This document shows, piece after piece, positions 5,739 to 41,958 of a stretch of 46,153 nucleotides of DNA. The position numbers and the translations under genes are program-made. Below the pieces are notes generated by a model. That model worked only from the letters and a program-made list of their open reading frames with translations. It did no database searches and had not been told where the DNA came from. Numbering within the stretch: the stretch's first letter is position 1; the number at the start of each line of letters is the position of its first letter. The stretch is from a virus. The DNA is taken from UHGV virus genome UHGV-0219331; one strand, written 5' to 3'.

Positions 5739-5839
5739 CTCCTCTCACTCCTTTCTTACTATGTTGATTTTAATGCCTAGTTTACTGCTTTCCCTTCATG
5801 TGCTATACTTTTCTTAATTAATTGCAAAGGAGACCGGTT

Positions 5840-6566: not shown

Positions 6567-6571
6567 AGTGC

Positions 6572-6666: not shown

Positions 6667-6681
6667 ATGGAGGTACTTAAT

Positions 6682-7320: not shown

Positions 7321-7375
7321 ATATATAAAAAGCAATTGCTTTATATAAAAATTATTTACCGAGGAGGATAAAACT

Positions 7376-8086
7376 ATGGCACTAATCAAATGCCCAGAGT
7401 GTGGAAAAGAAATCAGTGATAAGGCAGCAACCTGTCCGAATTGTGGATGCCCAACAAATGAATCACCGAATAATGCCCAGACTCCACCATTAACAAATAC
7501 ATCGTCACCAACTGTGGCCAGAAAGAAGAAGGGGCATGGATGTCTTTTCTGTATTATTACTTTCTTTGCTCTATCAGCCTTTGTTGGGTTTTGGGCTTCC
7601 AAAGATAGTTCAACTGTTAAAAATGACAATGTAATTGAGTTCACTAAAGAAGATGCTGCAGACATAGACGATAAAGTCTGGGAAAACGTTGAGATTGCTA
7701 TCAAGGCAAATAATGTGATAGTAAATAATTTTGACAAGGCTCTATCTGGAGAAATATCCCTTGTAGACTATTATGATTCCTGTAAGGAGGCCTCAAAAGT
7801 TTTAGGCGGAAACTCAACCAAATTTCCTAAGTCAGACAATGACGGCGCCAAATCCTATATCCAGTCATCTACGCAATACGTTATACAGGTTCAAATTCTA
7901 TCTGATTCTGTAATAAAATACATTGACAAAGCAGAAACCAAAAATCTTTCAGCCGTTAAATCTAATATTGAACAGTGTTCTGAGTTAATAGCTGTCGTGG
8001 CTCAAAATCGGGGTGTGTTTTTAAGTACAAATGGCTTTACGGATGAAGAAATCAAGGAACGCGCTGAACAAATCTCTGTTGAATAA
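7376..8086 (+). CDS. Zinc-ribbon membrane protein (lysogeny-expressed moron, possible superinfection exclusion)
   Basis: RBS GAGGAGGataaaactATG. N-terminal CPECG...CPNCG ribbon, one TM (LFCIITFFALSAFVGFW) and a ~170-aa extracytoplasmic domain. Confidence 0.55.
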   Translation: MALIKCPECGKEISDKAATCPNCGCPTNESPNNAQTPPLTNTSSPTVARKKKGHGCLFCIITFFALSAFVGFWASKDSSTVKNDNVIEFTKEDAADIDDKVWENVEIAIKANNVIVNNFDKALSGEISLVDYYDSCKEASKVLGGNSTKFPKSDNDGAKSYIQSSTQYVIQVQILSDSVIKYIDKAETKNLSAVKSNIEQCSELIAVVAQNRGVFLSTNGFTDEEIKERAEQISVE

Positions 8087-8277
8087 TTAAATATCAAAAA
8101 GCCCCTGTGCTACCAACACAAGAGCTTTTAATGATACTATTGCCGGGCTGGAGCCACGGTATAATATCGGCCTCAACAACCATATTATATCATCTGGCAC
8201 CCATTCTGGCAATGGGTGTCTTTTTTATGCCCATTTTTAAGGACCGTTGCGATATCGCAACAGAAAGGATGATATAT

Positions 8278-9531
8278 ATGGCACTAATTCAATGTCCAGA
8301 ATGCGAGGGTAAGGTTAGTGACCGCGCCTCCTCCTGCCCACACTGCGGATTCCCGCTCAATACAACCGCTGCCCCTGCTCCTGCCCCAAAGCGTGGGCGC
8401 CCCAAAAAGCAGGAAGAGCCAGCGTTTCGGCTGCCAAATGGGTATGGAACCATCAGAAGATTAACAGGGAACCGTAGAAAGCCATACGTTGCCCTGGTAA
8501 ACCCTACACAGGTATTCAACGATGAAAAGGGAACCTCCCATTACAAATATGACCTGCTTGGGACCTTTGCGGAAAAAATAGATGCATATAATGCAGTCAT
8601 GCAGTATCACAAGAGTCCTGGAGGGCTGAACAGCAACATAACTGTCAAGGACCTATTTAATAAATGGGTTGAGCATCATATGCAGGTAAATAACTATCCT
8701 GATTCCATGCGGAAAAAATATGAAATGGAGTTTGCCTACTTGTCTCCTTTATACAAAATCAGGGTCCTGGATACCAGCCCGGCTACACTGAAAGAAGCAA
8801 TCGAGAATGCATCCAAAATTGGAACCCGTGGAAAAACCAAAGGACAGGTTGTTGCTGCCACGCCAAATATGAAAAGCAATATCAAAGGCCTACTGAATAT
8901 GATGTATGACCACGCCATATTTCTCCGCATCCTTACAGTAAACTATGCACGCACCTTTGAACTCAAATTCGATATCGTTCGCCGCGAGGGCCGCCCTTAC
9001 ACGCAGGCCGAAAGGGATATCCTATGGAGACATTCCGGAACCCTCTTTATAGACATGACCCTGGTGCAGTTCTATTCCGGCTGGCGCCCCAACGAGGTAC
9101 TTAACATCGGGATAGATAATGTGGACCTGCAAAACCGTACATTTACCAGTGGTTCCAAGACAGAAGCTGGAATCAACCGGACCATTCCCATACATTCAAA
9201 AATCATTCCTATAGTAGAGCATTACTACAAGGAGGCACATGATATAGGACGCAATGTACTATTTGGTCGTACAAGCCCACATAATGGCCAATATACTTAT
9301 ACAGACAATTCGTTCCGGTATGGCCTATTCAAAGACTTCGAGGAATTAGGAATCAAGGACCATGTGTTGCACGATGGCAGACATACATTTTCGACTATGG
9401 CAAAAGAAAATGGGGTAGATGACTTTGCCAGGAAAAAATTTATGGGACATAACATTTCAGACCTGACAGACCGGGTATATACACATTTAGATTTGGAGTG
9501 GTTCCGGACGGAGATAGAAAAGATAAAGTAG
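8278..9531 (+). CDS. int: Tyrosine integrase with N-terminal zinc-ribbon and AT-hook-like (GRPKK) segment
   Basis: Catalytic HDGRHTF...VYTHL (HxxR, Tyr). N-terminus MALIQCPECEGKVSDRASSCPHCGFP is paralogous to the 7376 product. Start ATG at 8278 chosen because the upstream ORF extension is not conserved. Confidence 0.8.
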   Translation: MALIQCPECEGKVSDRASSCPHCGFPLNTTAAPAPAPKRGRPKKQEEPAFRLPNGYGTIRRLTGNRRKPYVALVNPTQVFNDEKGTSHYKYDLLGTFAEKIDAYNAVMQYHKSPGGLNSNITVKDLFNKWVEHHMQVNNYPDSMRKKYEMEFAYLSPLYKIRVLDTSPATLKEAIENASKIGTRGKTKGQVVAATPNMKSNIKGLLNMMYDHAIFLRILTVNYARTFELKFDIVRREGRPYTQAERDILWRHSGTLFIDMTLVQFYSGWRPNEVLNIGIDNVDLQNRTFTSGSKTEAGINRTIPIHSKIIPIVEHYYKEAHDIGRNVLFGRTSPHNGQYTYTDNSFRYGLFKDFEELGIKDHVLHDGRHTFSTMAKENGVDDFARKKFMGHNISDLTDRVYTHLDLEWFRTEIEKIK

Positions 9532-9785
9532 TGTTGATTATTGTGTTGATTATTATGTTATTATTTATGGCCTTGCTTTCACTTTTGATAAAATACATCC
9601 TATCACAAAATAACGTATTTACAGTGTTCTCTCCATTTGACCAGATATTTCCCCCGCATTCACACTATGTTCATATTTCATATAAATGCTGTAAAAACGT
9701 AATGTAATCTTCGCATGTTTATTATTGTGTTATTACACAACTGCATTTTTATAATATTGTATTTTATTAATAGCAGCCCAGCATT

Positions 9786-9860
9786 CGAACGTTTGTTCTT
9801 ATCCCTATTGCATTCTCTATAGTTCTGTGCTAATATGAAAACATGCAGAACGTTTGTTCT
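9786..9860 (+). promoter_or_regulatory. recA SOS promoter: two Cheo-type LexA boxes (CGAACgtttGTTCt at 9786-9799, aGAACgtttGTTCt at 9847-9860) flanking sigma-A TTGCAT-17-TAATAT (9808-9836)
   Basis: Exact matches to the Firmicutes LexA box consensus GAAC-N4-GTTC, read directly from sequence. Confidence 0.8.
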
Positions 9861-9881
9861 TTTTCGAAAGGAGTTTACATT

Positions 9882-10895
9882 ATGGAGAATAGTTCAGACA
9901 AAATGGAAGCAATTGAAGATGCAATTGCAAAAATTGAAAAAGCATTTGGAAAAGGTACATTAATGAAATTAGGGGAATGTTCGCGTATGAACGTAGAAAC
10001 CTTCTCTTCCGGTTCTCTCGGCCTTGATATGGCATTAGGATGCGGCGGTGTTCCTAAAGGCAGGATTATAGAAGTCTATGGACCGGAGTCATCCGGTAAG
10101 ACCACGGTTGCCCTGCACATGGTTGCCGAGGTACAGAAGAGGGGCGGGATTGCAGGCTTCATCGATGCAGAGCATGCCTTTGACCCAGTATATGCCAGGA
10201 ATATCGGCGTGGATATTGACAACCTGTACATATCACAGCCAGATAATGGGGAGCAGGCTTTAGACATAGCAGAGAGACTAATATTATCCGGAGCCATGGA
10301 TATTATCATTATCGATTCAGTGGCTGCATTGGTTCCAAAGTCAGAAATCGATGGGGAAATGGGAGATGCCCACGTAGGTCTGCAGGCCAGGCTGATGTCG
10401 CAGGCACTCAGAAAATTGACTGCCATATTAAGCAGAAGTAATTGCACTATTGTATTCATTAATCAGCTCCGTGAAAAAGTAGCCACAAATTTCAGTGGTG
10501 GAAATAACGAGGTAACCACAGGGGGTAAGGCCCTTAAGTTCTATGCTTCTGTTCGGCTTGATATACGTAAGCAGAATATTCTGAAGCAAGGCACTGATAT
10601 TGTTGGGAACCATGTTAAGGTACGTGTAGTAAAAAACAAGGTGGCGCCCCCGTTTAAAGAAGCTGAATTTGATATTTTATTTGGGGAAGGAATTTCAAAG
10701 GAAAGTGAATTGCTCGAGATAGGTGTAAAACTGGGAATCATCGATAAGAGCGGATCATGGTACTCCTACGGTCAAACAAAATTGGGACAAGGCTCCGATA
10801 ATGTCCGGTTATTTTTAAAAGCTGATTCCGCGCTTGCAAACGAAATACAGGAACATATCGTTAATATGGATGCTGACAAAAAGAAATTAGCATAA
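9882..10895 (+). CDS. recA: Recombinase A
   Basis: Walker [11 protein letters not shown]1/L2 loops and the full RecA fold over ~338 aa. Start at MENSSD... after AAGGAG. Host-type SOS regulation. Confidence 0.95.
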
Positions 10896-10913
10896 TTAGG
10901 AAGGGGCCATCTT

Positions 10914-11123
10914 ATGGGTAACATGTACAATGATAATGACCAAATAGATAGTTTGGGAATAATACTTAATGCAGTGGTTCCCATAGCCGCTAAACTGAGA
11001 AGAGGTGAGGAAGCAACTGGTCAATGTCCTCGCTGTGGGAAAACTATGCGTGTATCTAAAAGTGGATACAATGGACATGTCTGGGCGGTCTGTGAAAAAT
11101 GTGGCGTATTAATATGTTCATAA
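10914..11123 (+). CDS. Small zinc-ribbon protein downstream of recA
   Basis: CPRCGK...CEKCG, 69 aa. Shares recA's terminator. Confidence 0.4.
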   Translation: MGNMYNDNDQIDSLGIILNAVVPIAAKLRRGEEATGQCPRCGKTMRVSKSGYNGHVWAVCEKCGVLICS

Positions 11124-11133
11124 TATAATATAG

Positions 11134-11172
11134 GCGGGTCCGTTTAATCCGGATCCCGCCACTTTTTATCCT
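11134..11172. terminator. Bidirectional rho-independent terminator (GGCGGGTCCG-loop-CGGATCCCGCC followed by a T-run)
   Basis: 10-bp GC-rich stem with one bulge. T-rich tracts on both strands. Sits between the recA operon and the convergent integrase. Confidence 0.6.
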
Positions 11173-12083
11173 GCATCACGCTTATTTAAAAAATCAACAG
11201 CAATCTGCTGCATGCCTGGAGCAATATGTGTATATCGCATTGTCATATTGATATCCGAATGTCCAGCCCGGTATTGAATAACCGGAAGTGGCAAACCAGC
11301 ATCAACCAGCTCTGTTATGTGTGTATGGCGCAAATCGTGGAATCTCCCGCTTTCAATCCCTACTTTATTAAGCGTTTTGCGAAAGTATTTGACTGTATAC
11401 CACGGATTCATTTCTTTTCCGTATTTATCTTCAAATACCCATTCGCAAGTAGCCTTTACTTTCCTTTTCAAAAACATCTCTTCTATCTTTTTGTCAAACA
11501 TTATAGTTCTTTGAGAAGTTCTTGATTTTGGGCCATTAATAAAATATTCGTGCGGAGAAATTGCCACAATCGTTTGGTTGACTGTAAGTGATTTAAATTC
11601 AAAATCTATATCACTCCATTGCAGTCCAAAAATCTCCTCTTTCCGCATACCTGTATGATATGACAAGAGAATCATATCACCTAACCATTTAGGTCTTGCG
11701 GCTTCTATCATTACTTTTACTTCTCTCGGCGTGTAAACATAGTATTTTTTACTTGGGACACGCTTAAGCCTTTTTACCAAATCCATCGGATTATTTCTGA
11801 TAATCCCTTTGTTTTTAGCATATGTAAAGACGCCATTCAGAATTTCCAAGGCTTTATTGATTGAGTTGGCGCACAAAGGGCCTCCAGTCAAATGATTCCC
11901 GTGCTCCAATTCTTCTTGTATATATAAGTTGATATCGACATCAGTTATAGCATCAATATCCTTATCATCAAAATATGGTACAATGTGACATCGGATAGTC
12001 TCTGATTTGCGATAGAGTGTTATTTCTCGTTTATCAAAGACTTGTCCCGTCCACCATTGCTCCCTAACTTCCATAAATTTCAT
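11166..12083 (-). CDS. int: Tyrosine integrase (phage integrase family)
   Basis: C-terminal HDLRHTHITEL...GHSDINMTMRYTHI gives the R/HxxR/Y catalytic set. N-terminal SAM-like domain. Confidence 0.85.
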   Translation of the reverse strand: MKFMEVREQWWTGQVFDKREITLYRKSETIRCHIVPYFDDKDIDAITDVDINLYIQEELEHGNHLTGGPLCANSINKALEILNGVFTYAKNKGIIRNNPMDLVKRLKRVPSKKYYVYTPREVKVMIEAARPKWLGDMILLSYHTGMRKEEIFGLQWSDIDFEFKSLTVNQTIVAISPHEYFINGPKSRTSQRTIMFDKKIEEMFLKRKVKATCEWVFEDKYGKEMNPWYTVKYFRKTLNKVGIESGRFHDLRHTHITELVDAGLPLPVIQYRAGHSDINMTMRYTHIAPGMQQIAVDFLNKRDAG

Positions 12084-12180
12084 TATTTGCCTCCTTGATT
12101 CATTCAGGCGGCCATGTTATAATATAGCCGCCTGGTAACGGGTAGCGGTTGCAGTGTACTTTGGTCGGTCATGCAGCCGC

Positions 12181-12459
12181 TTAATCTATTATAGTCCATC
12201 CAGCCTTCGTAAGTACCCTGATAGCATCATCGACATACCCTTTTTCATTTCCATACTCCGCATGCAGATTCTGGATGGTCTGTGATTTGTAGATTTTCCA
12301 GTTGTTTTCTGAAACGAATACATCCAACCAAATATCCCCATCTTCTGTGTCAATCATAATTTGGTAGCAACGACCGAAATCCTGACGGCACCAGTCTTTT
12401 GCCTCGGCGTATTTCTTCTTAATGTTCTGCATTATTTTCTTTCTACTAATTTGTTTCAT
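12181..12459 (-). CDS. Hypothetical protein
   Basis: 92-aa ORF in the moron region. Confidence 0.35.
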   Translation of the reverse strand: MKQISRKKIMQNIKKKYAEAKDWCRQDFGRCYQIMIDTEDGDIWLDVFVSENNWKIYKSQTIQNLHAEYGNEKGYVDDAIRVLTKAGWTIID

Positions 12460-12505
12460 ATTATCCTCTCTTTCCCCCTGCCATTACCCGGACGGGTACG
12501 GGTGA

Positions 12506-12748
12506 TTACCGATACCTTTTAAATAATTGATGATATTCAGATACCATCCTGTCCATTACTTTAATATCATTTTGGACAATTGCCCTTTCTAACACCTTAA
12601 TATCTGCCTCAATTTTATCTATGTCACAATCCTTGTCATCATAGTAATAATCGTCAGCTTTATTTTGCAGCTTACAAAGCAAAGTATCCGCATCATCAGT
12701 CACATAATATTTGATTCCGTTTACCATCCGATGTGCATTCATAAACAT
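12506..12748 (-). CDS. Hypothetical protein
   Basis: 80-aa ORF, acidic. Confidence 0.35.
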   Translation of the reverse strand: MFMNAHRMVNGIKYYVTDDADTLLCKLQNKADDYYYDDKDCDIDKIEADIKVLERAIVQNDIKVMDRMVSEYHQLFKRYR

Positions 12749-12783
12749 CCTTTCTGCCCTCGTTACCTCCGGGGCGGGTGAAT

Positions 12784-12984
12784 TTAACGATATTTTTCCA
12801 AGATTTCGCCGTCTAATGCTTTAATGATTTGATTTGCGTACCCATCAAACCACTGCACCCAAAGATGAACTTTCTCCTTTGTATCATCGTCCAGTATTAG
12901 ACCACAGGTCTCCATGGTAGCAAGTCCTTTTATTTCTTCAGCAGCTTCTCGTATCTGGGCTATCTGCCCATTCTTCATATACAT
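12784..12984 (-). CDS. Hypothetical protein
   Basis: 66-aa ORF. Confidence 0.3.
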   Translation of the reverse strand: MYMKNGQIAQIREAAEEIKGLATMETCGLILDDDTKEKVHLWVQWFDGYANQIIKALDGEILEKYR

Positions 12985-13023
12985 AGTATCTAATCCTCCT
13001 CTTCCTCATCCCTTCCACAGGTT

Positions 13024-13413
13024 TTATCTGCCGATGTACTGTCTGTTGGCTGCGTCTACATCGTCATACTTACCAACAACATACTGGTTAGTTACTAAAT
13101 CTACGTAACCGCATTTATAGGAGCCTTTGCTACGGCCATTTGCGGTGAAGCAGTTAATGGTGAGGTATGCCCTCTTTGCCCCTCCTTTTTCCCACACGTT
13201 TACGTTAACCTTGCGGTCAACGCCCGCGTTGATGTGGTAATCACCATAAGCCATGTCTTCCAGCGCTGCCTTTAATGCATCAACCATATTTTCCGCCATG
13301 CCCTTCGCTTCCTTCCATGCCTGGGTGAGCGCTGCGCTCATTCCCATGGCTACTTTCTTGACCAGTTCCCATGCCCTTTTCATGATGCTTGATAAGTTAT
13401 ATTTTTTCATTTT
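13024..13413 (-). CDS. Hypothetical protein, divergent from the XRE regulator
   Basis: Start at MKKYNLSS after GGAGGaaaacaaaATG. 129 aa. Confidence 0.4.
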   Translation of the reverse strand, partial: KMKKYNLSSIMKRAWELVKKVAMGMSAALTQAWKEAKGMAENMVDALKAALEDMAYGDYHINAGVDRKVNVNVWEKGGAKRAYLTINCFTANGRSKGSYKCGYVDLVTNQYVVGKYDDVDAANRQYIGR

Positions 13414-13444
13414 GTTTTCCTCCGTTCCTTTGATAACTATAGTA

Positions 13445-13866
13445 TACATCTTTATGTATCATTTTACTATATGAAAAATACACAAAGATGTACTTTATTT
13501 TCAGTGAAAATACACAAAGATGTATTAATTTGCATAATTGACAATATGTACATAATGATGTAATATTAGAATGAGAAGGAGGTGCAAGATGCCAGAACGA
13601 AGAAATTTTTATGATGGATCCATATCATACGAAAGATTATGGGAAACCATGAGAAAAAGGGGACTTAAGAAACAGGACCTTAAGGGAAGTCAATTTAATC
13701 TGTCACCAACATTGGTCAATAAACTTGCCAAAAATGAAAATGTGGCAGTGGATACAATCATGTACTTATGTGACAAATTAGGCTGTCAACCATGCGACAT
13801 ATTGGAGTATAAAAAATAGTACATTATTATGTATTTTTTTATTGACAATAAGTACATAAAGATGTA
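13445..13866. promoter_or_regulatory. Operator/promoter cluster: five copies of palindrome TACAy-N4-ATGTA (13445-13458, 13479-13492, 13511-13524, 13820-13833, 13853-13866) overlapping two consensus sigma-A promoters (TTGACA-17-TAATAT 13538-13566; TTGACA-17-TATAAT 13842-13870)
   Basis: Read directly from sequence. The promoters have perfect -35 and 17-nt spacers. Confidence 0.65.
13589..13819 (+). CDS. XRE/Cro-C1-type HTH transcriptional regulator
   Basis: GLKKQDLKGSQFNLSPTLVNKLAKNENVAVDTIMYLCDKLGCQPCDILEY is a DUF739/XRE HTH. RBS AAGGAGGtgcaagATG. Flanked by the palindromic operators. Confidence 0.65.
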   Translation: MPERRNFYDGSISYERLWETMRKRGLKKQDLKGSQFNLSPTLVNKLAKNENVAVDTIMYLCDKLGCQPCDILEYKK

Positions 13867-13920
13867 TAATAAGAATAGTTAAGGAAGGCAAGGTCCTTAA
13901 CGAATATAAGGAGAGAGGAA

Positions 13921-14076
13921 CATGGATGAGAACATGACAGACAAACAATATGACGGTATCCTACAAATGATTGGAATGATTTTAGATGGCTGCAAAGACT
14001 TAGAGGAAGCAAAACAGAAAATCACAGAACTTAGGGAAGGAAAAAAAGAAAAGCCTACAGAATAAGCTTTAGGGAA
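13921..14076 (+). CDS. Small hypothetical protein (51 aa)
   Basis: AGGAGAGAGGaacATG RBS after the second consensus promoter. Not in the ORF track because it is under 60 aa. Confidence 0.3.
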
Positions 14077-18841: not shown

Positions 18842-19837
18842 TTATCCGGCAGCGTACATATCGTACTCATACTTCATCTTTCCGGCGCCGTTTTTGGCAT
18901 AGATACGCGTTGTCTCAACACTGGCATGTCCCATTATGTCACACAGTGTCGGCAGCGGCATCCCTTTATTCAGGGCGCGTGTTGCAAACGTATGCCGTAG
19001 CAGATGAGGAAATACCCGTTTTCCCAGCCCTGCCCGTTTTGCAATCCTGCGTATTATGTTCTCCAGGGCATTCTTCTTTAGGCCTTGATGCGGCGCCCGG
19101 CTGGAAAGTATGACTGGACCGCTGCGCCGGTCACCTAAATACTGCTCCAGATACTCAAGCGCCCGCTCTGAAAAGAATACTATCCGTTCTTTCTGTCCTT
19201 TTCCGATTACCTTCACATATCCTGCCTGTAGGTCAAGATTCCCCAAATCCATATTGACTACCTCAGATACCCGGCACCCAGTGGCCAGGAACAGCTCCAG
19301 CACTGCGTTATCGCGGATATTTGTGCCGCAGGCAATCCGCATCTTCTCCATTTCCCTTGGGCTCAGTGCTTCCCTTATCTCTGCCACATACTTAATAGGG
19401 TCCACAGTTGCCATAGGATTACGTCTGATATATCCCCGGTCATGCAGGAAAGCAAAGAAGGAACTGGCTATGCGCCGCTTATGGTCCTTTGTACTGGCAC
19501 TAATCTGACGTACTTGCTCATAGTAGTTCAGGCATTCCACCACATCCTCCCCCGTAATCTCCTGCACCGGCTTTCCCACATACACCAGTAGGTCTGTCAG
19601 GAAACGTTGATATTGATTGACTGTACTGGCCGAGTAATTCTCAAACCTCATTTTCCCTATGAATATATCCAATTCCGGGAAACTGATTACATTGGTGCTC
19701 AACCCAGTCTCCCTTTTGGCCACCTCATAGTTCCGGAGCACCGCTGACAGTGCCCCATCAATCACCTGTAGCGCAGGCCGTTCCAATTCATTGGACAGCC
19801 TGGCCATCAGTTCATCCTTCAGTCTTACTTCATCCAT
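18842..19837 (-). CDS. Rci/XerC-like tyrosine site-specific recombinase (candidate shufflon invertase)
   Basis: 331 aa. N-terminal SAM-like core-binding domain. Catalytic ATGCRVSEV, HLLRHTFATRAL and GHASVETTRIYAK supply R, HxxR and Y. Embedded between the cassette pairs. Confidence 0.8.
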   Translation of the reverse strand: MDEVRLKDELMARLSNELERPALQVIDGALSAVLRNYEVAKRETGLSTNVISFPELDIFIGKMRFENYSASTVNQYQRFLTDLLVYVGKPVQEITGEDVVECLNYYEQVRQISASTKDHKRRIASSFFAFLHDRGYIRRNPMATVDPIKYVAEIREALSPREMEKMRIACGTNIRDNAVLELFLATGCRVSEVVNMDLGNLDLQAGYVKVIGKGQKERIVFFSERALEYLEQYLGDRRSGPVILSSRAPHQGLKKNALENIIRRIAKRAGLGKRVFPHLLRHTFATRALNKGMPLPTLCDIMGHASVETTRIYAKNGAGKMKYEYDMYAAG

Positions 19838-33926: not shown

Positions 33927-34967
33927 TTAAATCCCATCCACATAACGCATGATGTTCTCATAATACATCTGCACCTCGGATATATTTGCCATGTATGCAG
34001 TGTCATAGCACACATTCTCCGCACTCGCCTGGGTCATGACACGGCTTAATGGGGCCAACTCATCCGTTGCCACGAACCGTTCTTTATTGAGATACACGAC
34101 CATACGGTCCTTTCCTCCCGTACCTGCCCCCTTACACCAGGAGCACCCGCCGATATACAGGTCGCTACCATTGGTCTTAGCTACATTGTTGTCCAGAAGG
34201 AACTGCAGTATGGTCTTTTCCGCCAGTTCTGATACCCTGGTGGTAGCCAGGTAATTGAACTGTTCGTAAGGCATGATTATATGGTTTGGGATGGCATCCC
34301 TATCATATTCAGCAGCACCCCATACGGCGAGGATGGCATCATTAATATCCTTCAGAATCTGGTCTGGCATCTTGGTGTTAAATGCAGTCCCACTGGATGT
34401 GCCTGTCGCTGCAGCACTTGCTATAGTGACGTTTGGGTTGTTAATAAGTCCTGTGGAACCGTACCGTTTAATACCTACATACACATTTGCATCCATATGC
34501 TTGTCATAGGTCATACGGATGCCGTCCCGCAGGATACTCTCAAGGCTACGCCCAGTCAGCTTCTCACGCTGCATGTCCACCCACATGACCCTCATACCAA
34601 TGGAAAAAATGTGGGTCTTGAACAGGCCTTTATCGAAATTGGCCTGTACCATCGGAATGCCATTGGCGCCGCCTGCATGTACCGGACCGTCATCACTACC
34701 ACCTGTCACACCATACTCCACGTTCATTGCGCTGATGAACTCTGCCCATCCGCCGCCAACCCTCATTGGGATATCACGACCATAGGTGAAGCTGGTAAGT
34801 GGCTGACGGACAGTGTTGTCCCGTTTTTCTAGTTCAGACTGCAGGAAGGCACCGCCATTAGCAATGGCAGCAGCATCCATGGTCTGATATTTATGTGGTG
34901 CTGCCGCTCCGGTCGGAGAGGATGTCACCACACCTGCGTCAAAAGTTCCCATGTTCTTGAATTTCAT
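33927..34967 (-). CDS. Major capsid protein (DUF2184/XkdG family)
   Basis: 346 aa. Position after protease/scaffold and the decoration protein. Confidence 0.75.
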   Translation of the reverse strand: MKFKNMGTFDAGVVTSSPTGAAAPHKYQTMDAAAIANGGAFLQSELEKRDNTVRQPLTSFTYGRDIPMRVGGGWAEFISAMNVEYGVTGGSDDGPVHAGGANGIPMVQANFDKGLFKTHIFSIGMRVMWVDMQREKLTGRSLESILRDGIRMTYDKHMDANVYVGIKRYGSTGLINNPNVTIASAAATGTSSGTAFNTKMPDQILKDINDAILAVWGAAEYDRDAIPNHIIMPYEQFNYLATTRVSELAEKTILQFLLDNNVAKTNGSDLYIGGCSWCKGAGTGGKDRMVVYLNKERFVATDELAPLSRVMTQASAENVCYDTAYMANISEVQMYYENIMRYVDGI

Positions 34968-34980: not shown

Positions 34981-35490
34981 TTATGCTCTGTTGCAGGACA
35001 TAATCCTGATTTCCGCCACGCCGTTTGCATCCTTCTCACCATGCCACTCGCAGTTGGTCAATTCCACCGTCTTCCCCTCATCTGCAGATGCCTCAAAGCC
35101 TCCGACAATACCAGTTGGGATTGTATCATTGGCCACAGTCCGGATATACACCTTTCCACCCAGTTTCGGCGTCCCTACGTTGCACAGCACGTTGATGCAT
35201 CCGCGCTTGAATACGCTCACTGCCTCATCCGGCCTATATTCCCCAGCGGACTGCGAAAGATAGGAGGTCGCGCTCTTAAACTCCCTGGAGGCAATACCAA
35301 CAAAATCAGCTGCCTTACTGCTCTCCCCAAAGGCAACCACTTTACTGTCTGCATCGTATACCAAGGGAAGTCCGAATGTTACCGCATTGTCCCCTCCCAG
35401 CGGATGGGTATCCACTATCATATCCGGCTGTCTGGCATAATCACCTGCATATCCATGTGTCATGTTCTTCCCAATAACCTGTCCTTTCAT
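34981..35490 (-). CDS. Head decoration/cement protein (DUF2190-like)
   Basis: 169 aa between scaffold-protease and capsid. Confidence 0.45.
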   Translation of the reverse strand: MKGQVIGKNMTHGYAGDYARQPDMIVDTHPLGGDNAVTFGLPLVYDADSKVVAFGESSKAADFVGIASREFKSATSYLSQSAGEYRPDEAVSVFKRGCINVLCNVGTPKLGGKVYIRTVANDTIPTGIVGGFEASADEGKTVELTNCEWHGEKDANGVAEIRIMSCNRA

Positions 35491-36719
35491 TACTTCGTAC
35501 CTCCATTCTGTTTGTGTGGGTTCATGGCATCGTATGAGGCCTGATAAGCCTCAAGGTCTGCCTGAGGATTCCTATCCGTCACTTTCGCTGCATTCTTCTG
35601 GGCGGTCTGTGCAATCTTTGCAATGTCGCTCACCTTTTCCTTATCAGTCAAGCAGGAAACCAGGGAATCCGTGACTGATTTTCTGGTAGCCTCATCCTTA
35701 ATTCCCGCAATCACCGGACGGAGTTGCTTGACTACCGCTGCCATCACGGCCCTGTCGGCAGCACATGCTGATTTATCCAGTTCTTCTGCCGGAACTACTT
35801 TCGCCTCAGTTGTTGGCGCCGATGGCTCCCCTCCTTCCCCCGTCAGTTCCTTTACCAGGCTGTCCAGCGGGTCTTCGGCCGGCTTCCCGGTAGGGGCACC
35901 GTTCTTTTCTCCTATGATTTCCTTAATCATATCCATCAGCATGTCCATTTTCCCGTCAAGACTGGCTGAATCCTGCGCGCCTTCCTTTGGCGGCTCCTCC
36001 TTGGCTGCAGATGCAGCAGGGGGTTCCTGGGCTGTCATATCCTCATCCATTGCCGCGGCTGCATCTACTGCCATCGTTTCCAGCTCTTCCGGTGATGCAT
36101 CCTTAGCCGCCTGGGCAAACCACTTGAAAAATAAACTGTTCTTCTTCATCTTCCCATTCCTTTCCGACCTTTTCACGGCCTCTACCTTTTTCTTTGAATC
36201 TAAAATCGCAACATGCTTCCCGGCCCTTCCCCGTGTCACCACGGCGATATGGTTCCCCCGGATATCATACTGCGAATAGGTCCCATCCTCATTTTCTGTG
36301 TAGCTGCACTCATATCCACAGCTGATTTCCCGTTTACCGCCCTGAACCGCCCGGATTAATTCCTCATCCTGGATGTGCAGGTCCGCTATCACATGTCCTT
36401 CCCATTCCCCTTCTCCCTTCCGGATATTCTGGGCATGTCCTCTGGCGTACTGGATACAGTTATCCGGCGTGAGAAGTTCCGGCGGGTGTTCATCCGTTAC
36501 CGGCTTCCCCTCAAAGCTGGACAGTGCCGCTTCAGAGAATACCTCATCTGGAGAGCGGCACACTGTTACCATCTTTGAGTTGCTCCCATCCGGCTTCAGT
36601 TCGCTTTCCAGGTACTCCATTTCCCCTGTCCGGGCAATGGGCACATTGCGGCAAATTAAAAAGCCCTCAACCGTTTCCATCTGGTTGGGGCTTATCGTAT
36701 AGCCATAATATGCAAGCAT
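35490..36719 (-). CDS. Prohead protease-scaffold fusion (DUF2213/XkdF-like)
   Basis: 409 aa. N-terminal DUF2213-like region, then an acidic A/E/P-rich scaffold-like tail. RBS AGGAGGGacaactaaATG. Confidence 0.6.
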   Translation of the reverse strand: MLAYYGYTISPNQMETVEGFLICRNVPIARTGEMEYLESELKPDGSNSKMVTVCRSPDEVFSEAALSSFEGKPVTDEHPPELLTPDNCIQYARGHAQNIRKGEGEWEGHVIADLHIQDEELIRAVQGGKREISCGYECSYTENEDGTYSQYDIRGNHIAVVTRGRAGKHVAILDSKKKVEAVKRSERNGKMKKNSLFFKWFAQAAKDASPEELETMAVDAAAAMDEDMTAQEPPAASAAKEEPPKEGAQDSASLDGKMDMLMDMIKEIIGEKNGAPTGKPAEDPLDSLVKELTGEGGEPSAPTTEAKVVPAEELDKSACAADRAVMAAVVKQLRPVIAGIKDEATRKSVTDSLVSCLTDKEKVSDIAKIAQTAQKNAAKVTDRNPQADLEAYQASYDAMNPHKQNGGTK

Positions 36720-36782: not shown

Positions 36783-37001
36783 TCATACTTTTAACATATC
36801 CTTGATTTTCTCCGCTTCATCCTGAGTTATCTCATCATACTCCCAGTCCTCTCCAATAAAGATGCAGGCCTGTTCTGGCGCAGGAATCCACTTCCGTAGC
36901 CGTTTATCATACCGTTCAAAGTTCCCGTTCAGGTAGCGGTATAGACGGTCCGCTTTCTTATTCTTACTATCGAAACCATATACAAAATAAAAATCCTCCA
37001 T
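36783..37001 (-). CDS. Small acidic protein, candidate immunity/antitoxin for the MuF-fused toxin domain
   Basis: 72 aa. Start lies 8 nt after the MuF stop. Confidence 0.4.
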   Translation of the reverse strand: MEDFYFVYGFDSKNKKADRLYRYLNGNFERYDKRLRKWIPAPEQACIFIGEDWEYDEITQDEAEKIKDMLKV

Positions 37002-37009
37002 ATGACCTC

Positions 37010-38677
37010 CTACTTAATCCGGTCAATGTTTACCGGTACTTCCAACTGCGCAGACAATTCAAACATCTTCTTATTCAACTCTGCCTGTTTCTCCGGTGTC
37101 GTTGTCTCCAGCCTGGATTGCTCATAAAGTTTATGCATTGGTCCATCCTTAATTTTGAAGCTTTCCGGCGTATGGAATTGTACTTCAAATTTCTGCCCAG
37201 ATGGGGCCTTGAAAATACAGTTGACACCTTTATATGCCGAATGCTTATCCAACCAGGTATTCTTTACCCTTATCACCTCATACCCTTTTGCCTTCATAGC
37301 ATCCGTGACATTCATATATGCATTTGTTAGGTTCAGTGGATTATCCTGGTAGGTATACCGGATTACATCATTTGTGGAGTTAATAGTGTCCGTAATGACT
37401 TGTGCATCCAGGCTATGATTGCTGTCTGTTCCCACCTTGCGCAGGAAGGAATCTTTCGTTTTTACACGGTGCTCCAGTCCAATCATAGACACCCCTGTAT
37501 CATTTGATATCTTGGTCAAATCAGCAGTGATTTCCGGTTCTTTTGCAATGATTTTTCCATATGCATTTGATTTCCGATAAATGGCCTGCGTTTCCTTCCA
37601 TTTTACAGATTCATTATACTTCATGTCCCTGAACTTTTCAAAGGTTTTCGGCATGTCATTACCACATACCTTTCGATACCGATTATACTGCTTGTAATCA
37701 TTTAACAGCTTCTGTCGGTTCCTTACCTTTTCTTTATATGCCGCAATCTGCTTCTTGGTTCGTGGGTCCACTGTAATCGGATTCTTTTCAAAACTGGAGA
37801 AGTCCTTATCCTTCTGAATCTGCTTATCTGTCTTCCCTATAGTCGTGTATTTGACTAGGGAGTGCAGGCAGTTCGGATGGATGTTCAGATAGGTATTGGA
37901 CAGTTCATCCGGACCAGATGGGTCAATCTTTCCAAAAGCCTTCGCCAATGCGGGATAATCCGGATTAGTTCCGGAACGGCTATATACCCGGCCTTCCAGC
38001 GGGGCACATATCGGGCAGGTGCTGCCAATCTTAACAATCTTATACAGGTCATGCTCTGGGTCCGCTGTCAGGATGGCGGATATCTCCGCTTGCCTGGCAG
38101 TTGCCCTGGTTGCCATGTTACAATAGTCCTGCAAAGACCATTTTCGTCCTGCCTTATCCACAAAGGATGTGACTCCATTGCGTTCCAGTTCCTGGGCCAT
38201 ACTAACCGCTGCTTTCCCGGTGCCATAACCAGACGCTTGCTGCTCTGCTACAGCTTGCAAAGCAGTATTCCGAAGTGCCCCCTCCTGCTGCCTACCAACC
38301 TGAAACACTTTCTCAATCGTCTTTTGCGCGGTAGTTGACGCTTCCACAATGTCCCCCAGCAGATTGTTAGACAGCTGCTCCACAATCCCCATCTGCGTTG
38401 CCGTAAGCCCGGCTGCGTTGGCATAACCATTGGCGGCAGCTTCAGACCGATAAAATATGGACTCTATCATGGTCGGCACATAGTTCCAGCTCTCATCCAC
38501 CATCTCCTGCAGTATCTGCTGGGTACGTTTGAGGGCTGCCACTTCTGCGTAGTCTACATACCCATTGATACGTTTATGGTTAATCTCGGCAATCAGGCGC
38601 CGTTCCGTACGCAGGAATAACATCCGCAGGAACCTGGTCTTATCATCTTTATCCGGTGGCCGTATAAGTGTCGGCAT
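37010..38677 (-). CDS. Head morphogenesis (Mu F / SPP1 gp7-like) protein fused to a C-terminal RelA/SpoT-like nucleotide pyrophosphokinase (toxSAS-like) domain
   Basis: MuF motif CPICAPLEGRVY. The C-terminal ~200 aa show HRVKTKDSFLRKV (cf. GRPKHIYSIWRKM), DVIRYT and YKGVNCIFKAPSGQKFEVQFHT (cf. GYQSIHTVV..VEIQIRT). Confidence 0.7.
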   Translation of the reverse strand: MPTLIRPPDKDDKTRFLRMLFLRTERRLIAEINHKRINGYVDYAEVAALKRTQQILQEMVDESWNYVPTMIESIFYRSEAAANGYANAAGLTATQMGIVEQLSNNLLGDIVEASTTAQKTIEKVFQVGRQQEGALRNTALQAVAEQQASGYGTGKAAVSMAQELERNGVTSFVDKAGRKWSLQDYCNMATRATARQAEISAILTADPEHDLYKIVKIGSTCPICAPLEGRVYSRSGTNPDYPALAKAFGKIDPSGPDELSNTYLNIHPNCLHSLVKYTTIGKTDKQIQKDKDFSSFEKNPITVDPRTKKQIAAYKEKVRNRQKLLNDYKQYNRYRKVCGNDMPKTFEKFRDMKYNESVKWKETQAIYRKSNAYGKIIAKEPEITADLTKISNDTGVSMIGLEHRVKTKDSFLRKVGTDSNHSLDAQVITDTINSTNDVIRYTYQDNPLNLTNAYMNVTDAMKAKGYEVIRVKNTWLDKHSAYKGVNCIFKAPSGQKFEVQFHTPESFKIKDGPMHKLYEQSRLETTTPEKQAELNKKMFELSAQLEVPVNIDRIK

Positions 38678-40122
38678 TATCCATCATCCTCCCCGGCTCC
38701 AAAGGCTCCAGGCAATGCCAGTCCTGCCAGCGGGTCCTGCATAGCCTTGTAATCTGAGTATGTCCTGCCCTTCGCCTGTTCAATTGCTTCGTCTGATATG
38801 GTATTGTACATGCCTGTCTCATCAGCCAGCGCTTTAAGCTCCTTCTGGGCCGTGGCCGCGTCAATCAGGTCGCTCTGATAGACGGACAATACCGCCTGTG
38901 TCTTCTTCTCTGTTATATCCGCGACCTCATTGGAATCTGGGGTCTGAAGCGGCGGGAAATCTACGTCCATGTCATCAGGGACCGTCCCCCAGGCAGAGAG
39001 GGCCATGATTGGTAACAGGCGCTCCATGATTGGCCGCAGCTGGTTCTCCCGCAGGCCATCTATGTAATCGTAATAGTTGTTCATGTCGCTCTCACCAGTG
39101 GCATTCATACCAGCTGGCGACCGTCCAAACAGTTTCGTGACCGGAGTCTTGGCCGCGCCAGCTACATCCATCATCACCCGGTCATATACCTCTGGCAGGC
39201 CGGTAAACGTGTACTGGGTATTATGCATGACATCACCCTTGTTGACCAGACGCGTGCCAAAGTTGCTTTCTATCACGCTCTGGGCCTGCAGGGTCTGCCA
39301 GAACCGGCGCTGGGCCTCCGCATTGCTGGTTGCAAGCATCTGATCCAGGCTGTCTGTTTCCATGTAGTTAACATTGGCCCGGAAGGTCAGGGATGCTATG
39401 TTAGCGGATACATTGTCTCGCTTCACCAGTTCGCTGTATATGGCTTCCAGTTCTGATTCCCCCCAGTAATTCTCTGCTATTTTCTCATTGTACGGAAGTT
39501 CTCGGCCCGTAAAGCGCAGGACCCTGCTGTGGTGCACCCTGGATATCAGCGTGCCGCTCTCTTCATCTCGGATGGTATAGTATTCCGGTAGACCGAAGTC
39601 CTGGTCTGATGGGTCTGTCACCTGTCCCAATTCCGGATAGATGCCGCTCCATCTGTCCAATATCATCAGCCCAAGGAAGCATCCCGGAAGCACCAGTCCA
39701 TAGTCCAGCGGCAGTGATAGGTCATCCTGGCCGCGTACCATGATGATTCCGGCCGCACCCCCATACAGTCTGCCCCAATACATCCCTTCAAGGAGGGATT
39801 TGCGCAGGTGTACCTTCCGTTCCATCCGCTGCATGGAATCTATGTATTCAGGGGCCACATTGCTTTGGATGGTATACCACTTACGGACCATGTCTCCCGG
39901 TATCGTCTCAATGATGTTCTGGACAATCCAATTCTCCCGATACAGGCTGGTCAGCAGCTGGTAATTCTGGGTCATACGGGTAAGTGGGTATTGTGTGGCC
40001 TGCAGGAGGTCCTGAGTGCCATATCCCAGCCGCGCTATTGGATTAGAAAAGGCATCCATCGTTGTGACGGGTGCCTGCTTTGTGTCTGCCCGCACATGAC
40101 GGGTGCTCCTACGTTTTGACAT
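38677..40122 (-). CDS. Portal protein (DUF1073/XkdE-like)
   Basis: 481 aa. ATGA overlap with MuF. Follows terL. Confidence 0.8.
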   Translation of the reverse strand: MSKRRSTRHVRADTKQAPVTTMDAFSNPIARLGYGTQDLLQATQYPLTRMTQNYQLLTSLYRENWIVQNIIETIPGDMVRKWYTIQSNVAPEYIDSMQRMERKVHLRKSLLEGMYWGRLYGGAAGIIMVRGQDDLSLPLDYGLVLPGCFLGLMILDRWSGIYPELGQVTDPSDQDFGLPEYYTIRDEESGTLISRVHHSRVLRFTGRELPYNEKIAENYWGESELEAIYSELVKRDNVSANIASLTFRANVNYMETDSLDQMLATSNAEAQRRFWQTLQAQSVIESNFGTRLVNKGDVMHNTQYTFTGLPEVYDRVMMDVAGAAKTPVTKLFGRSPAGMNATGESDMNNYYDYIDGLRENQLRPIMERLLPIMALSAWGTVPDDMDVDFPPLQTPDSNEVADITEKKTQAVLSVYQSDLIDAATAQKELKALADETGMYNTISDEAIEQAKGRTYSDYKAMQDPLAGLALPGAFGAGEDDG

Positions 40123-41497
40123 ATATCCCTATCCTCCATTCCGGCAACTTCGTGAATATGTAATACCGCAAAGCATCCGGTCCATGGTCCAGCTGCTTCA
40201 CCGGCTTTTCCTCCCCACGTTCCCTGGCCTTGTCATCCCAGACATAGGACCGCAACTCTGTAATAAGGCCCGTGCATCTCTCATGTATCCTTATCTTGCC
40301 TCTGTAAAACATGGATGACACGGCCCGGATACCATCCTCCACATCGTTCTCAGCCGGTTTCACAACATAGCCCCGCCCTCGTAACTCCGTGATAAAGCTG
40401 GCCGCTGATGGGTCCGCTATGATATCAGCCATCAAATCCGGATTATTTCCCATGAAATCGACCATATCATCACCATATTGACTGTCCGTTTTCTGTACCT
40501 TCTCCACACGGCTGTCCCATCGGTATTCACGGTCCACCCAGATGATGTCTCCATCGTCATAGATGTCCAGATATACACATGGGTTAGTGGTCCCATAGTC
40601 CAGTGCAATTGTACGGACACTGAGATATTCCAGCCCTTTTGGCCTTGTATCATCATCATAGATATTAGCCTTTGTGAACATGGTATATATCAGGCCCTCA
40701 GCCACAGCCCATAGGCCTTTTATATAACGCAGGAAAAAGACACCTGCGTACATGCTCCGGTATCTCTTCTTTATTTCTTCATCTAAGGACAGGTTATCGT
40801 CCATCGTGAAGTGAAGGTATAGCAGCCGTTTAACTTCTTGTCCCTTCTCTTGCAATTCTCTGGCTCTTCTCTGTCCAATGAATCCAATTGCCCGGTCAAT
40901 CCATCCAACCTTAAACCAATGCATAGGTCCGGATGGATTACAGTTAAACCAGAATTTACTTCCGGTCACAGAGCATCGGCCTGTAGCCTGGTTGACAAAG
41001 GACTCGGGCATCAAGGCCACCTCATCGAAAAACGCCCCTGCCGCTGTGATACCCTGTACCAGTTCCTGGGAACCCTCGTCCTTACCACCGAAGATGTAGA
41101 AGTAATTGGTAACCCCCTTCCGGGTGACCTCCAGCATATTGGGTGTCTCACCAGACAGATGGTGTATGCATCTATATCCCCGACTCCGTAGCATGGTCTT
41201 AAGGTTAGTCAATACATTACGCTGGAAGGAACTGATTGTCTTGCCAGCCATGATGAAGTTTTGGCCGTCAAACGATTCCATTGCCCAGAATATAAATGAT
41301 AAGGACATGCTTACCGTTTTCCCGGAACGGATGGCCCCATCCGCTATGATGCCGTCATAGTCCTTCACTGGGCTATTTGGCATCCACCAGTGAAGGACCT
41401 TACGTTGCTTTTTGGAAAATGGTGCGAACTTAAATATCGGCCTCTTCTTCGTTTTCATCTGACCATCCATCCTCTTCGTTATTGTCAGCCCAATCAT
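40109..41497 (-). CDS. terL: Terminase large subunit (PBSX XtmB-like)
   Basis: Walker A GAIRSGKTVS, and nuclease motifs in the C-terminal half. Confidence 0.9.
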   Translation of the reverse strand: MIGLTITKRMDGQMKTKKRPIFKFAPFSKKQRKVLHWWMPNSPVKDYDGIIADGAIRSGKTVSMSLSFIFWAMESFDGQNFIMAGKTISSFQRNVLTNLKTMLRSRGYRCIHHLSGETPNMLEVTRKGVTNYFYIFGGKDEGSQELVQGITAAGAFFDEVALMPESFVNQATGRCSVTGSKFWFNCNPSGPMHWFKVGWIDRAIGFIGQRRARELQEKGQEVKRLLYLHFTMDDNLSLDEEIKKRYRSMYAGVFFLRYIKGLWAVAEGLIYTMFTKANIYDDDTRPKGLEYLSVRTIALDYGTTNPCVYLDIYDDGDIIWVDREYRWDSRVEKVQKTDSQYGDDMVDFMGNNPDLMADIIADPSAASFITELRGRGYVVKPAENDVEDGIRAVSSMFYRGKIRIHERCTGLITELRSYVWDDKARERGEEKPVKQLDHGPDALRYYIFTKLPEWRIGIYVKT

Positions 41498-41900
41498 CTT
41501 CTACTGTACTTTTCAATGCATCCAGGAATCCATCATCCTCCTGCGCCTCATCATCCACACCCATGTTGGCCTTAGTAGCATCCATACGTAGCTTCTGTTC
41601 TTCTAAATCCACATCAGATTTAGAGGTCTGCCCCAATACATCCTTAATGGCCATATATGCCTTGACATTCCCATTCATGGCCTCCCTGACCATGGCAGCG
41701 CTGATGACAGTTTCCAGCGTGCTGTCCAACCCCAAGGCCTCCAAAATTGGTGTCCAGTCCGGAATATCCACCTCGGAGGTGAGGATGGCGTTCATGGTCT
41801 GACGCAGGTTTGCCTTGCGGCGCCTGGCCTCGCCCGATGCTTTCCCGGCTTTGGAGGCATTCGCCCGGCGTTCGTCCGGTGTTGAACTCCTATACTGCAT
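41430..41900 (-). CDS. terS: Terminase small subunit (putative)
   Basis: Start at MQYRSS after TAAGGAaccta. Basic N-terminus, acidic C-terminus. Overlaps the terL start. Confidence 0.5.
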   Translation of the reverse strand: MQYRSSTPDERRANASKAGKASGEARRRKANLRQTMNAILTSEVDIPDWTPILEALGLDSTLETVISAAMVREAMNGNVKAYMAIKDVLGQTSKSDVDLEEQKLRMDATKANMGVDDEAQEDDGFLDALKSTVEDDWADNNEEDGWSDENEEEADI

Positions 41901-41958
41901 TAGGTTCCTTACATTTGCCAACCACCTCACCTTCCAATCCGGCTCATTTTAGGTACAG

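Follow-up and report, generated by a model that had tools for sequence, protein, structure and literature searches.

We describe here a two-gene locus in UHGV virus genome UHGV-0219331, whose 46,153 nucleotides (nt), analysed as a whole, are referred to below as the window. A gene for a 555-amino-acid (aa) protein (positions 37010..38677, minus strand), in which a capsid-targeting MuF domain is joined to a C-terminal alarmone synthetase domain, is followed by an open reading frame (ORF) for a protein of 72 aa (36783..37001, minus strand). We consider it probable that the two genes form an Apk2/IapK-type module of polymorphic toxin and immunity protein that is carried by a phage. Apk2, or "adenosine 3'-pyrophosphokinase family 2", was defined by MuF toxins from prophages of Streptococcus pneumoniae, Mannheimia and Pasteurella (PMC12226406, PMC10083569). 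The locus is a member of this already described Apk2/MuF-EAS family (EAS, exported alarmone synthetase) and not a new kind of system; a MuF2-type N-terminal domain, the lack of an Aph1 hydrolase, a gut Enterocloster host, a divergent IapK and a promoter-like element at the domain junction are its modest distinguishing features. Both ORFs are present, with the sizes, coordinates and 8-nt gap that a first-pass annotation of this DNA had reported.

The C-terminal synthetase domain

The toxin cassette, aa 326-555 (37010..37702, minus strand), appeared to consist of three leading helices and an RSH (RelA/SpoT homologue) synthetase, or SYNTH, core; it was delimited by a jump in identity among homologues, which is described below, and by comparisons to solved structures. 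By phmmer, residues ~390-555 matched the structure 8vx3 ("SaSAS") at E 8e-22 (81 bits), and a profile search returned the same structure at E 2e-29 and Tas1 weakly, at E 0.15. The protein in 8vx3 is an exported alarmone synthetase from Streptomyces albidoflavus, SaEAS (PMC12691689). For aa 325-555, AlphaFold2 gave a confident model, with a pLDDT (predicted local distance difference test) score of 94.8, and in a Foldseek comparison to the Protein Data Bank (PDB) every significant match was an RSH synthetase (SaEAS, Tas1, RelP, SAS1, CapRel, Rel, RelA and SpoT), the best of these being SaEAS at E 3e-13, with a TM (template modelling) score of 0.70-0.78 and 28-31% identity. The earlier description of this domain as RSH-like is borne out by 8vx3 both in sequence and in fold, at a level far in excess of chance.

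We located all of the RSH motifs that the first-pass annotation had quoted, and in the order in which it had given them. On the minus strand, these are syn1, RVKTKDSFLRK (aa 404-414, with R404, K406, S410 and K414; 37436..37468); syn2, DVIRYT (aa 437-442; 37352..37369), which is invariant in alignment A2 and includes RYT, an Apk-type signature; syn3, YKGVN (aa 482-486; 37220..37234), in which GxN, the Apk-type signature of the acceptor site, replaces SxH; and syn4, EVQFHT (aa 498-503; 37169..37186), in which E498, Q500, H502 and T503 are invariant. A syn5-like element, HKLYE (37121..37135), has H515, Y518 and E519 as invariant residues. In a family alignment that reaches down to 26% identity, R404, K406 and K414 of syn1, D437, R440 and T442 of syn2, and Y482, G484 and N486 of syn3 were likewise invariant. 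Residue D437 is aligned with D121 of SaEAS, an enzyme that is inactivated by the D121A mutation (PMC12691689). The ratio of nonsynonymous to synonymous substitution (dN/dS) for the C domain was 0.09-0.10 in comparisons to homologues of 90-93% identity, a sign of purifying selection. By these comparisons the C domain has the RSH synthetase fold, and all of its catalytic motifs are intact. We also considered a degenerate, inactive C domain and rejected it, since the motif residues are all conserved and dN/dS is ~0.09.

The N-terminal MuF domain

Residues 1-320 (37718..38677, minus strand) correspond to a capsid-targeting domain of the MuF2, or Phage_min_cap2, type. We observed a match of aa 44-277 to Pfam PF06152 (Phage_min_cap2) at E 4e-16, and matches of the 555-aa protein to the minor-head and head-morphogenesis families of PHROG. 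In the terminology of Jamet et al. (2017, PMC5576092), PF06152 is the "MuF2" branch of the MuF superfamily and PF04233, which includes Mu GpF and SPP1 gp7, is "MuF1". When the N domain was compared by hhalign to N domains of the PF04233 type, the probability was 92% over the CxxC...HPxC region, which in the window protein comprises CxxC at aa 221-224, HPNC at aa 267-270, and includes CPICAPLEGRVY at aa 221. By these comparisons the N domain belongs to the MuF superfamily. The label of MuF head domain that the protein had been given previously is accordingly right at the superfamily level, while its Pfam family is PF06152 and not Phage_Mu_F (PF04233). The G+C (GC) content of the N domain, 50.6%, is as in the flanking head genes.

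The 72-aa ORF as a candidate immunity gene

Sixteen homologues of the 72-aa ORF, 70-79 aa in length, show a clear pattern of conservation, and in comparisons to homologues of 81% identity, the proportion of nonsynonymous differences (pN) in the ORF was 0.085 and that of synonymous differences (pS) 0.77-0.79; it is a real gene. Its ATG follows the TAG stop of the 555-aa ORF after 8 nt, and by inspection of the sequence, a Shine-Dalgarno element, AGGAGG (37006..37011, minus strand), overlaps the toxin stop TAG and ends 4 nt before that ATG, an arrangement that couples translation of the ORF to that of the toxin gene.

In phages of Streptococcus and Mannheimia we observed a gene order in which the MuF gene is followed by an ORF of 68-72 aa, annotated as "hypothetical protein", and then by an HD-type phosphohydrolase of ~137-139 aa; iapK and aph1 are the genes that have been placed at those two positions (PMC12226406). 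Several comparisons connect the window ORF, which is ~25% identical to the small ORFs of these phages, to IapK. First, an hhalign comparison of the 72-aa family (alignment A3) to an IapK alignment (A6) gave E 1.9e-4 over 47 columns. Second, hidden Markov models (HMMs) of both families matched the same downstream ORF at intermediate loci (for example L044, L070, L084 and L085, where L numbers denote the loci that we compared). Third, 2 chains of BLAST matches at E<=1e-5 could be drawn, one from the window ORF through L044 (3.7e-17) to the small ORF of Javan119 (4.9e-7), and the other through L016 and L084 to the small ORF of phiARI0462. We also scanned one genome per species for the synthetase domain and obtained 425 confirmed matches (tblastn E<=1e-3), from which 80 loci were kept, most of them from Lachnospiraceae (Lacrimispora, Hungatella), Paenibacillaceae and Collinsella. 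An ORF of 67-82 aa lay within -25..+14 nt of the toxin gene in almost all of the 80. In the aggregate, these matches show homology between the 72-aa ORF and the IapK/Tis1 type of immunity protein.

By analogy to that type, the 72-aa protein may bind its cognate toxin and occlude the acceptor site. Features relevant to binding are the co-variation of the 2 proteins, described in the next section, and their complementary isoelectric points (pI), which are 4.9 for the 72-aa product and 9.2 for the basic toxin cassette. The acidic character noted at first pass is mild (16 D/E against 13 K/R), and the proposal made at the same time, that this ORF is a candidate immunity gene, finds support in its homology to IapK/Tis1 and in the co-variation.

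The ORF has no Pfam, PHROG or PADLOC annotation, a Foldseek search of its model against the PDB returned nothing with E<0.7, and the IapK profile did not match Tis1 among PDB sequences. A relation to Kelch repeats (E 3e-6, KLHL20), which emerged when PDB sequences were searched with the profile of the 72-aa family, was rejected as a sum of sub-significant motif matches of which no single stretch passes; the matches arise from a "FERYDxxxxxW" strand-turn (aa 26-40 of the product) that resembles each Kelch blade.

The small ORFs that follow homologous toxin domains comprise at least 3 sequence classes of 67-82 aa, all of which end in an "...EI[ST]xxEA..." helix and are connected to one another by BLAST single linkage at E<=1e-5. 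Apart from the window's own class, there is a class of 82/75 aa (L022-L029, L038, L041, L056, L061-L068, L074) and one of 67-71 aa (L048, L053, L066, L072, L089). Lacrimispora amygdalina DSM 12857 has 2 prophages with different toxin/immunity alleles (L019, L022).

A toxin-immunity cassette that moves between phage backbones

Comparisons to proteins with unrelated N domains placed a breakpoint in similarity at about aa 326, with ~20% identity upstream and 50-65% downstream. GC content changes at nearly the same place, from 50-54% in the MuF N domain and neighbouring genes to 41.1% in aa 321-555 and 42.0% in the small ORF. Prophages of Enterocloster clostridioformis (L001-L005) have the same 555 + 72 arrangement as the window. 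At L007, in a Paenibacillaceae prophage, and at L011, in a metagenomic phage, the portals belong to PF05133 and the MuF proteins, of 582 aa, are of the PF04233 type, and at L007, where the contig extends further, the scaffold and capsid genes also differ from those of the window; yet the last ~230 residues of the 2 MuF proteins are 53-65% identical to the window protein, and a small-ORF homologue of 70-72 aa (57-68% identity) then follows. Conversely, prophages of Lacrimispora and Hungatella that share the head module of the window (N domain 77-78% identical) carry a toxin allele of 56-59% identity and a small ORF of a different, 82-aa class (30-36% identity). Among 69 loci, the identity of the immunity protein correlated with that of the toxin core (Spearman 0.42 overall, 0.92 for pairs on the same backbone) and not with that of the MuF N domain (0.09), all of these values being descriptive only, as the pairs are non-independent.

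These comparisons indicate that the toxin domain and immunity gene have moved together, as one low-GC cassette, between unrelated phage backbones. Polymorphic toxin-immunity systems are classically recognised by swaps of backbone, allelic variation, co-variation and orphan copies, as seen here.

The location of the 72-aa ORF inside a structural operon, between the MuF and DUF2213 genes, could also be that of an ordinary head-assembly accessory gene with no role in immunity, and its lack of any Pfam, PHROG or PADLOC annotation or Foldseek relative is compatible with such a gene. We regard this as very unlikely. Homologues of the ORF accompany the toxin domain in 3 head modules that are unrelated and differ in the families of their portal, MuF, scaffold and capsid proteins, while the same head module with a different toxin allele (L022-L029) has a different, 82-aa ORF; moreover, an orphan copy stands apart from phage head genes altogether (L010), and the ORF shares the low GC content of the cassette and is homologous to IapK/Tis1. 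A candidate immunity gene remains our preferred reading.

Further observations were made on parts of the cassette in other settings. At L009:1227-6401, an array of small cassettes on the chromosome contains a stand-alone toxin-domain homologue of 270 aa (P0010) and a Toxin-deaminase gene (PF14424), with an ORF of 77-109 aa after each gene; the array looks like a set of orphan toxin/immunity cassettes outside any phage. At L010:1545-1784, an orphan immunity homologue of 79 aa, with no MuF or toxin gene nearby, lies between genes for an AAA_14/DUF4143 ATPase and an nSTAND NTPase; a defence island that holds an immunity gene without its toxin is one possibility. A gene for a Tad2-like protein (anti-Thoeris, PF11195; L011:5300-5545) stands directly after the toxin-immunity pair in the head operon of that phage. 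Also, pS for the immunity gene is saturated between the window and L001:6001-6219 and L015:4705-4923, while that of the adjacent toxin C domain is 0.30, so that the immunity gene was apparently exchanged, or diverged, separately from the adjoining toxin domain.

Relation to Apk2 and the probable product

We searched 50,697 phage genomes by tblastn with the C domain, and observed that its homologues are the C-termini of phage proteins annotated as "head morphogenesis" or "minor head", with 34-40% identity and E values of 1e-24 to 1e-35. They occur in phages of S. pneumoniae and other streptococci (36-38% identity, best E 1e-35), in Mannheimia phage vB_MhS_1152AP2 (34%) and in Pasteurella phage Pmp13 (40%); the comparison is to phages of the same host species as the characterised Apk2 enzymes, not to the exact strains used in the published work. 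The Apk2 C domains are toxic in Escherichia coli (PMC12226406, PMC10083569), and for S. pneumoniae and M. haemolytica, (p)ppApp was shown to be their exclusive product (PMC12226406). The Apk signature is RYT in syn2, GxN in syn3 and YH in syn4, versus AVR, SxH and IR in (p)ppGpp synthetases (PMC12226406); the window protein has RYT, GVN and FH at these positions.

Some of our results weigh against assignment of the locus to an Apk2/IapK module that makes (p)ppApp. The C domain had no match to Pfam RelA_SpoT (PF04607) even at E<=10, and none to the PADLOC defence models, with noise only in either search. The direct match of the 72-aa profile to that of IapK had a probability of 47%. A tblastn search with 3 Aph1 proteins found nothing below E 1 in the whole 46-kb window. 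Also, syn4 is FH here versus YH in the S. pneumoniae Apk2, and SaEAS, which carries the same RYT/GLN/FH motifs, leaves specificity for (p)ppApp unsecured.

With regard to the first of these results, the Streptococcus-phage MuF protein likewise has no Pfam RelA_SpoT match. The PF04607 model does not cover the MuF-synthetase clade, and membership in the RSH superfamily holds at the level of the fold; a check by Pfam alone would have falsely refuted the finding. Of the 2 comparisons that the first-pass annotation had proposed as a check on this domain, that to PF04607 gave no match and that by Foldseek gave RSH synthetases throughout. The failure of Pfam to detect the synthetase domain also accounts for the public annotation of the 555-aa protein, which is only "hypothetical" or "phage minor capsid protein"; the latter name, with Enterocloster aldenensis as the species, is that of an identical protein found on 547 public contigs.

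Aph1 was found in only 6 of the 80 related loci, in 2 of which it is fused to an immunity-like N-terminus. It has been reported to be absent from some loci of this kind and is not a defining feature of them (PMC10083569). In its absence from the window, immunity would rest on the binding protein alone, as may be the case for most members of this Aph1-poor clade. The 2 fusions (L076:4621-5256 and L086:4669-5304) are ORFs of 211 aa after the toxin gene, in which an immunity-like segment, "YYKL.D...W.RSGIM..Y.WPD", precedes an HD hydrolase part that matches PF13328 (HD_4) at E 1e-5 and the Aph1 HMM at E 1e-43 to 1e-45; as judged from these matches, they would unite both immunity functions in one polypeptide.

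The product of the C domain is not readable from its sequence, since its motifs are common to a promiscuous enzyme, SaEAS, and swaps of syn motifs left Apk2 specificity unchanged (PMC12226406). SaEAS makes both alarmones, with a Km that is 20-30-fold lower for guanylate acceptors. The C domain could accordingly be promiscuous or guanosine-specific, as in SaEAS, VpEAS or AaEAS, and intoxicate or reprogram cells via (p)ppGpp, not exclusively via (p)ppApp. SaEAS is the closest solved structure by sequence as well as by fold, and the locus is without the (p)ppApp-specific hydrolase Aph1. We nevertheless judge this unlikely, as the nearest characterised relatives with this architecture, which are MuF fusions from S. 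pneumoniae and M. haemolytica prophages, make only (p)ppApp, and phage homologues of these fusions outscore SaEAS (107-139 bits by tblastn, versus 81 bits by phmmer). Because the nearest same-architecture relatives make it, (p)ppApp is the product that we favour: by analogy, the acceptor is most likely ATP/ADP. Synthesis of (p)ppGpp besides (p)ppApp by the Aph1-less clade is a secondary possibility.

Some toxSAS enzymes act on tRNA, and CapRel was among the Foldseek matches to the C domain (E 1e-4). A pyrophosphokinase for the tRNA 3'-CCA end, like CapRel, FaRel2 and PhRel, would block translation with no depletion of nucleotides. This option, which the first-pass annotation had left standing, appears extremely unlikely to us: the CapRel match (TM 0.46, 12% identity) is far weaker than that to SaEAS, sequence homology of the C domain runs to the nucleotide-pyrophosphorylating Apk2 and SaEAS, and the 72-aa protein resembles Tis1 and IapK, which occlude a nucleotide acceptor site. 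The more general label of toxSAS holds with regard to the RSH synthetase fold, but a generic toxSAS is a poorer fit than the Apk2 family and the SaEAS-like EAS.

Possible action of the module

From the characterised relatives, we would expect the C domain to use ATP as the donor for pyrophosphorylation of purine nucleotides at their 3'-OH, with ATP/ADP and possibly also GTP/GDP as acceptors, and the resulting drain on ATP/ADP to lead to arrest or death of the cell. By the same analogy, the 72-aa protein would bind to the synthetase domain and cover the acceptor-nucleotide site, which may protect the producing or lysogenic cell. The biology of SPP1 gp7, on which this part of the scheme is modelled, suggests that the MuF domain may lodge the fusion, in low copy number, at the portal within the capsid, and that injection of the DNA may carry the enzyme into the next host as well. 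The virion delivery that the first-pass annotation proposed is still an untested idea for MuF toxins in general, according to the authors who have studied them (PMC10083569).

The same enzymology could serve another role, in which the packaged enzyme is not an interbacterial weapon but aids infection or lysogeny through a transient shutdown of the new host, and immunity guards the producer only during assembly of virions. Infection is helped by MuF/gp7 proteins, which leave the capsid along with the DNA, the literature openly treats the role of MuF toxins as unsettled, and Jamet et al. (PMC5576092) propose an inhibition of growth after lysogenisation; in addition, position in a late operon implies expression when the cell is already doomed. 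Polymorphic toxin/immunity alleles on one phage backbone and orphan immunity genes are, on the other hand, hallmarks of antagonism between strains. The sequence itself does not discriminate between the 2 roles, and we take that of an infection aid to be a serious possibility, albeit one that we do not favour over a toxin-immunity module of strain antagonism.

Comparison to known systems and spread of the family

Apk2 with IapK and Aph1 has been described for a prophage of S. pneumoniae SPNA45, M. haemolytica, P. multocida and Bacteroides caccae (Ahmad 2023, PMC10083569; Bartoli 2023; Paulet 2025, PMC12226406). As at those loci, the toxin gene of the window stands directly after the portal gene and joins a MuF-superfamily N domain to a C-terminal RSH synthetase with RYT/GxN/[YF]H motifs, an immunity-type ORF of ~70 aa abuts it, and MuF proteins from phages of the Apk2 host species share 34-40% identity with the C domain. 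The window differs in its N domain, which is MuF2 (PF06152) where theirs is MuF1 (PF04233), in its lack of the Aph1 found at the Streptococcus, Mannheimia and Bacteroides loci, and in its host, a gut Lachnospiraceae (Enterocloster).

SaEAS (PDB 8vx3; Ahmad 2025, PMC12691689) has the same catalytic motifs as the window toxin and, as stated, is the closest solved structure; unlike the window toxin, it is a Sec-secreted single-domain enzyme without an immunity gene. As in other EAS proteins, a SaEAS/Apk1-like SYNTH domain is joined in the window to a delivery module, here MuF, and 39 SPP1/MuF-fused relatives have been placed within the EAS family (PMC12691689). Tas1/Apk1-Tis1 of Pseudomonas aeruginosa PA14 (PDB 6ox6) is delivered via PAAR and type VI secretion and not by a capsid protein, and its toxin domain is only distantly related to that of the window (Foldseek E 2e-6, TM ~0.5; profile E 0.15). 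The toxSAS modules (FaRel, FaRel2, PhRel, CapRel) also have an RSH synthetase fold and a small adjacent protein, and theirs are toxic and neutralised by it; they are, however, stand-alone type II/IV toxin-antitoxin or fused-antitoxin defence systems, several of which target tRNA, whereas the domain in the window is the C-terminus of a capsid protein in a late operon. Other MuF toxins (Jamet 2017, PMC5576092; the Bxa ADP-ribosyltransferase of Bacteroides stercoris) share swappable C-terminal toxins, small downstream immunity ORFs and temperate phages with the window, and differ in chemistry, being nucleases, ADP-ribosyltransferases and others.

A profile search of 1.84 billion cluster representatives (50% identity) yielded 4,968 clusters at E<=1e-3, of which 1,998 were at E<=1e-30. 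Many are proteins of 520-600 aa with the domain at the C-terminus, and others are giant multi-domain or stand-alone proteins. Fusions of MuF to alarmone-synthetase toxins were discovered recently and have been sampled thinly. Experimental work covers four Apk2 toxin domains, and published surveys count 89 sequences of Apk2 and 39 of MuF-EAS, those of MuF-EAS being for the most part streptococcal. By our counts the family is far larger than such surveys imply. The occurrence of the same module in a prevalent prophage of human-gut Clostridia leaves the concept unchanged, but offers a tractable example from a gut commensal for asking whether MuF toxins are packaged and injected.

The C domain was also matched, at E 3e-27, by positions 1949-2129 of NCBIfam NF041399, a model of 2133 positions for the XopAD/skwp type III effector, which is listed among the delivery contexts of EAS (PMC12691689). 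In addition, 84 Ralstonia phage records contained tblastn matches to the C domain. As judged from these matches, the same synthetase domain appears to be used by effectors of plant pathogens and by their phages.

Gene order and carrier

The locus lies within an operon of head genes, all of them on the minus strand: a small-terminase candidate (41430..41930), the large terminase (40109..41497), the portal (38677..40122; PF06381, E 5e-107), the toxin and 72-aa genes, a DUF2213 gene (35490..36719), a cement protein (34981..35490) and the major capsid protein (33927..34967). The first base of the 555-aa ORF is the last base of the portal gene, and genes for a tail sheath and tape measure are found further downstream. 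A scan for terminators around the locus found none, so that the toxin and 72-aa genes would be read through within the late operon. The carrier is a temperate, myovirus-like prophage of Enterocloster (Lachnospiraceae), with the cassette inside the head-morphogenesis operon. The closest locus among species-representative genomes was that of [Clostridium] clostridioforme (93%), and a blastn search of the locus against 50,697 phage records gave a single trivial match of 135 bp.

An internal promoter-like site

A promoter-like sequence, TTGAAA-17 nt-TATAAT (11/12 matches), is located inside the toxin gene (37613..37641, minus strand), where it is built from the codons of a conserved junction motif, FEK...KYN. 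Homologous positions at L015-L029, L033, L035 and L038 have the motif F-E/D-K...K-Y-N. We observed that TATAAT is kept in 22 of 23 KYN-bearing homologous loci, which span different phage backbones, versus 10.3 expected from their own codon usage (a binomial P for this comparison ignores phylogenetic non-independence), and that a -35 box of at least 5/6 matches at the 17-nt spacing is present in 16 of the 23, while third codon positions in the spacer vary. The site could serve lysogens as an internal promoter from which immunity is expressed, or could reflect conservation, at the DNA level, of a recombination junction.

Our suggestion that the cassette, comprising aa 326-555 and the 72-aa gene, is a self-contained mobile unit with its own sigma-70-like promoter is a tentative one, and on balance it is unlikely to be correct. 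If it were true, lysogens would transcribe the immunity gene, perhaps along with a free fragment of the toxin core, while the late operon is silent, prophage carriers would gain standing immunity to toxin that arrives with sibling virions, and the possession of a promoter would account for the attachment of one cassette to MuF genes that are unrelated. Of the leads recorded here, this element alone has some potential for novelty.

Other features of the window

Stretches of lower GC content (36-45%) were found at positions 5800..14000 and 18842..19837 of the window. They contain a LexA/CI-like S24 repressor (6595..7320, plus strand), 2 zinc-ribbon proteins, 3 tyrosine-recombinase genes (8107..9531, plus strand; 11166..12083 and 18842..19837, minus strand) and a full-length RecA (9843..10895, plus strand; PF00154, E 1e-131). 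The presence of several integrases and a bona fide recA, inside the prophage or next to it, suggests a nested mobile element or a junction between prophage and host DNA.

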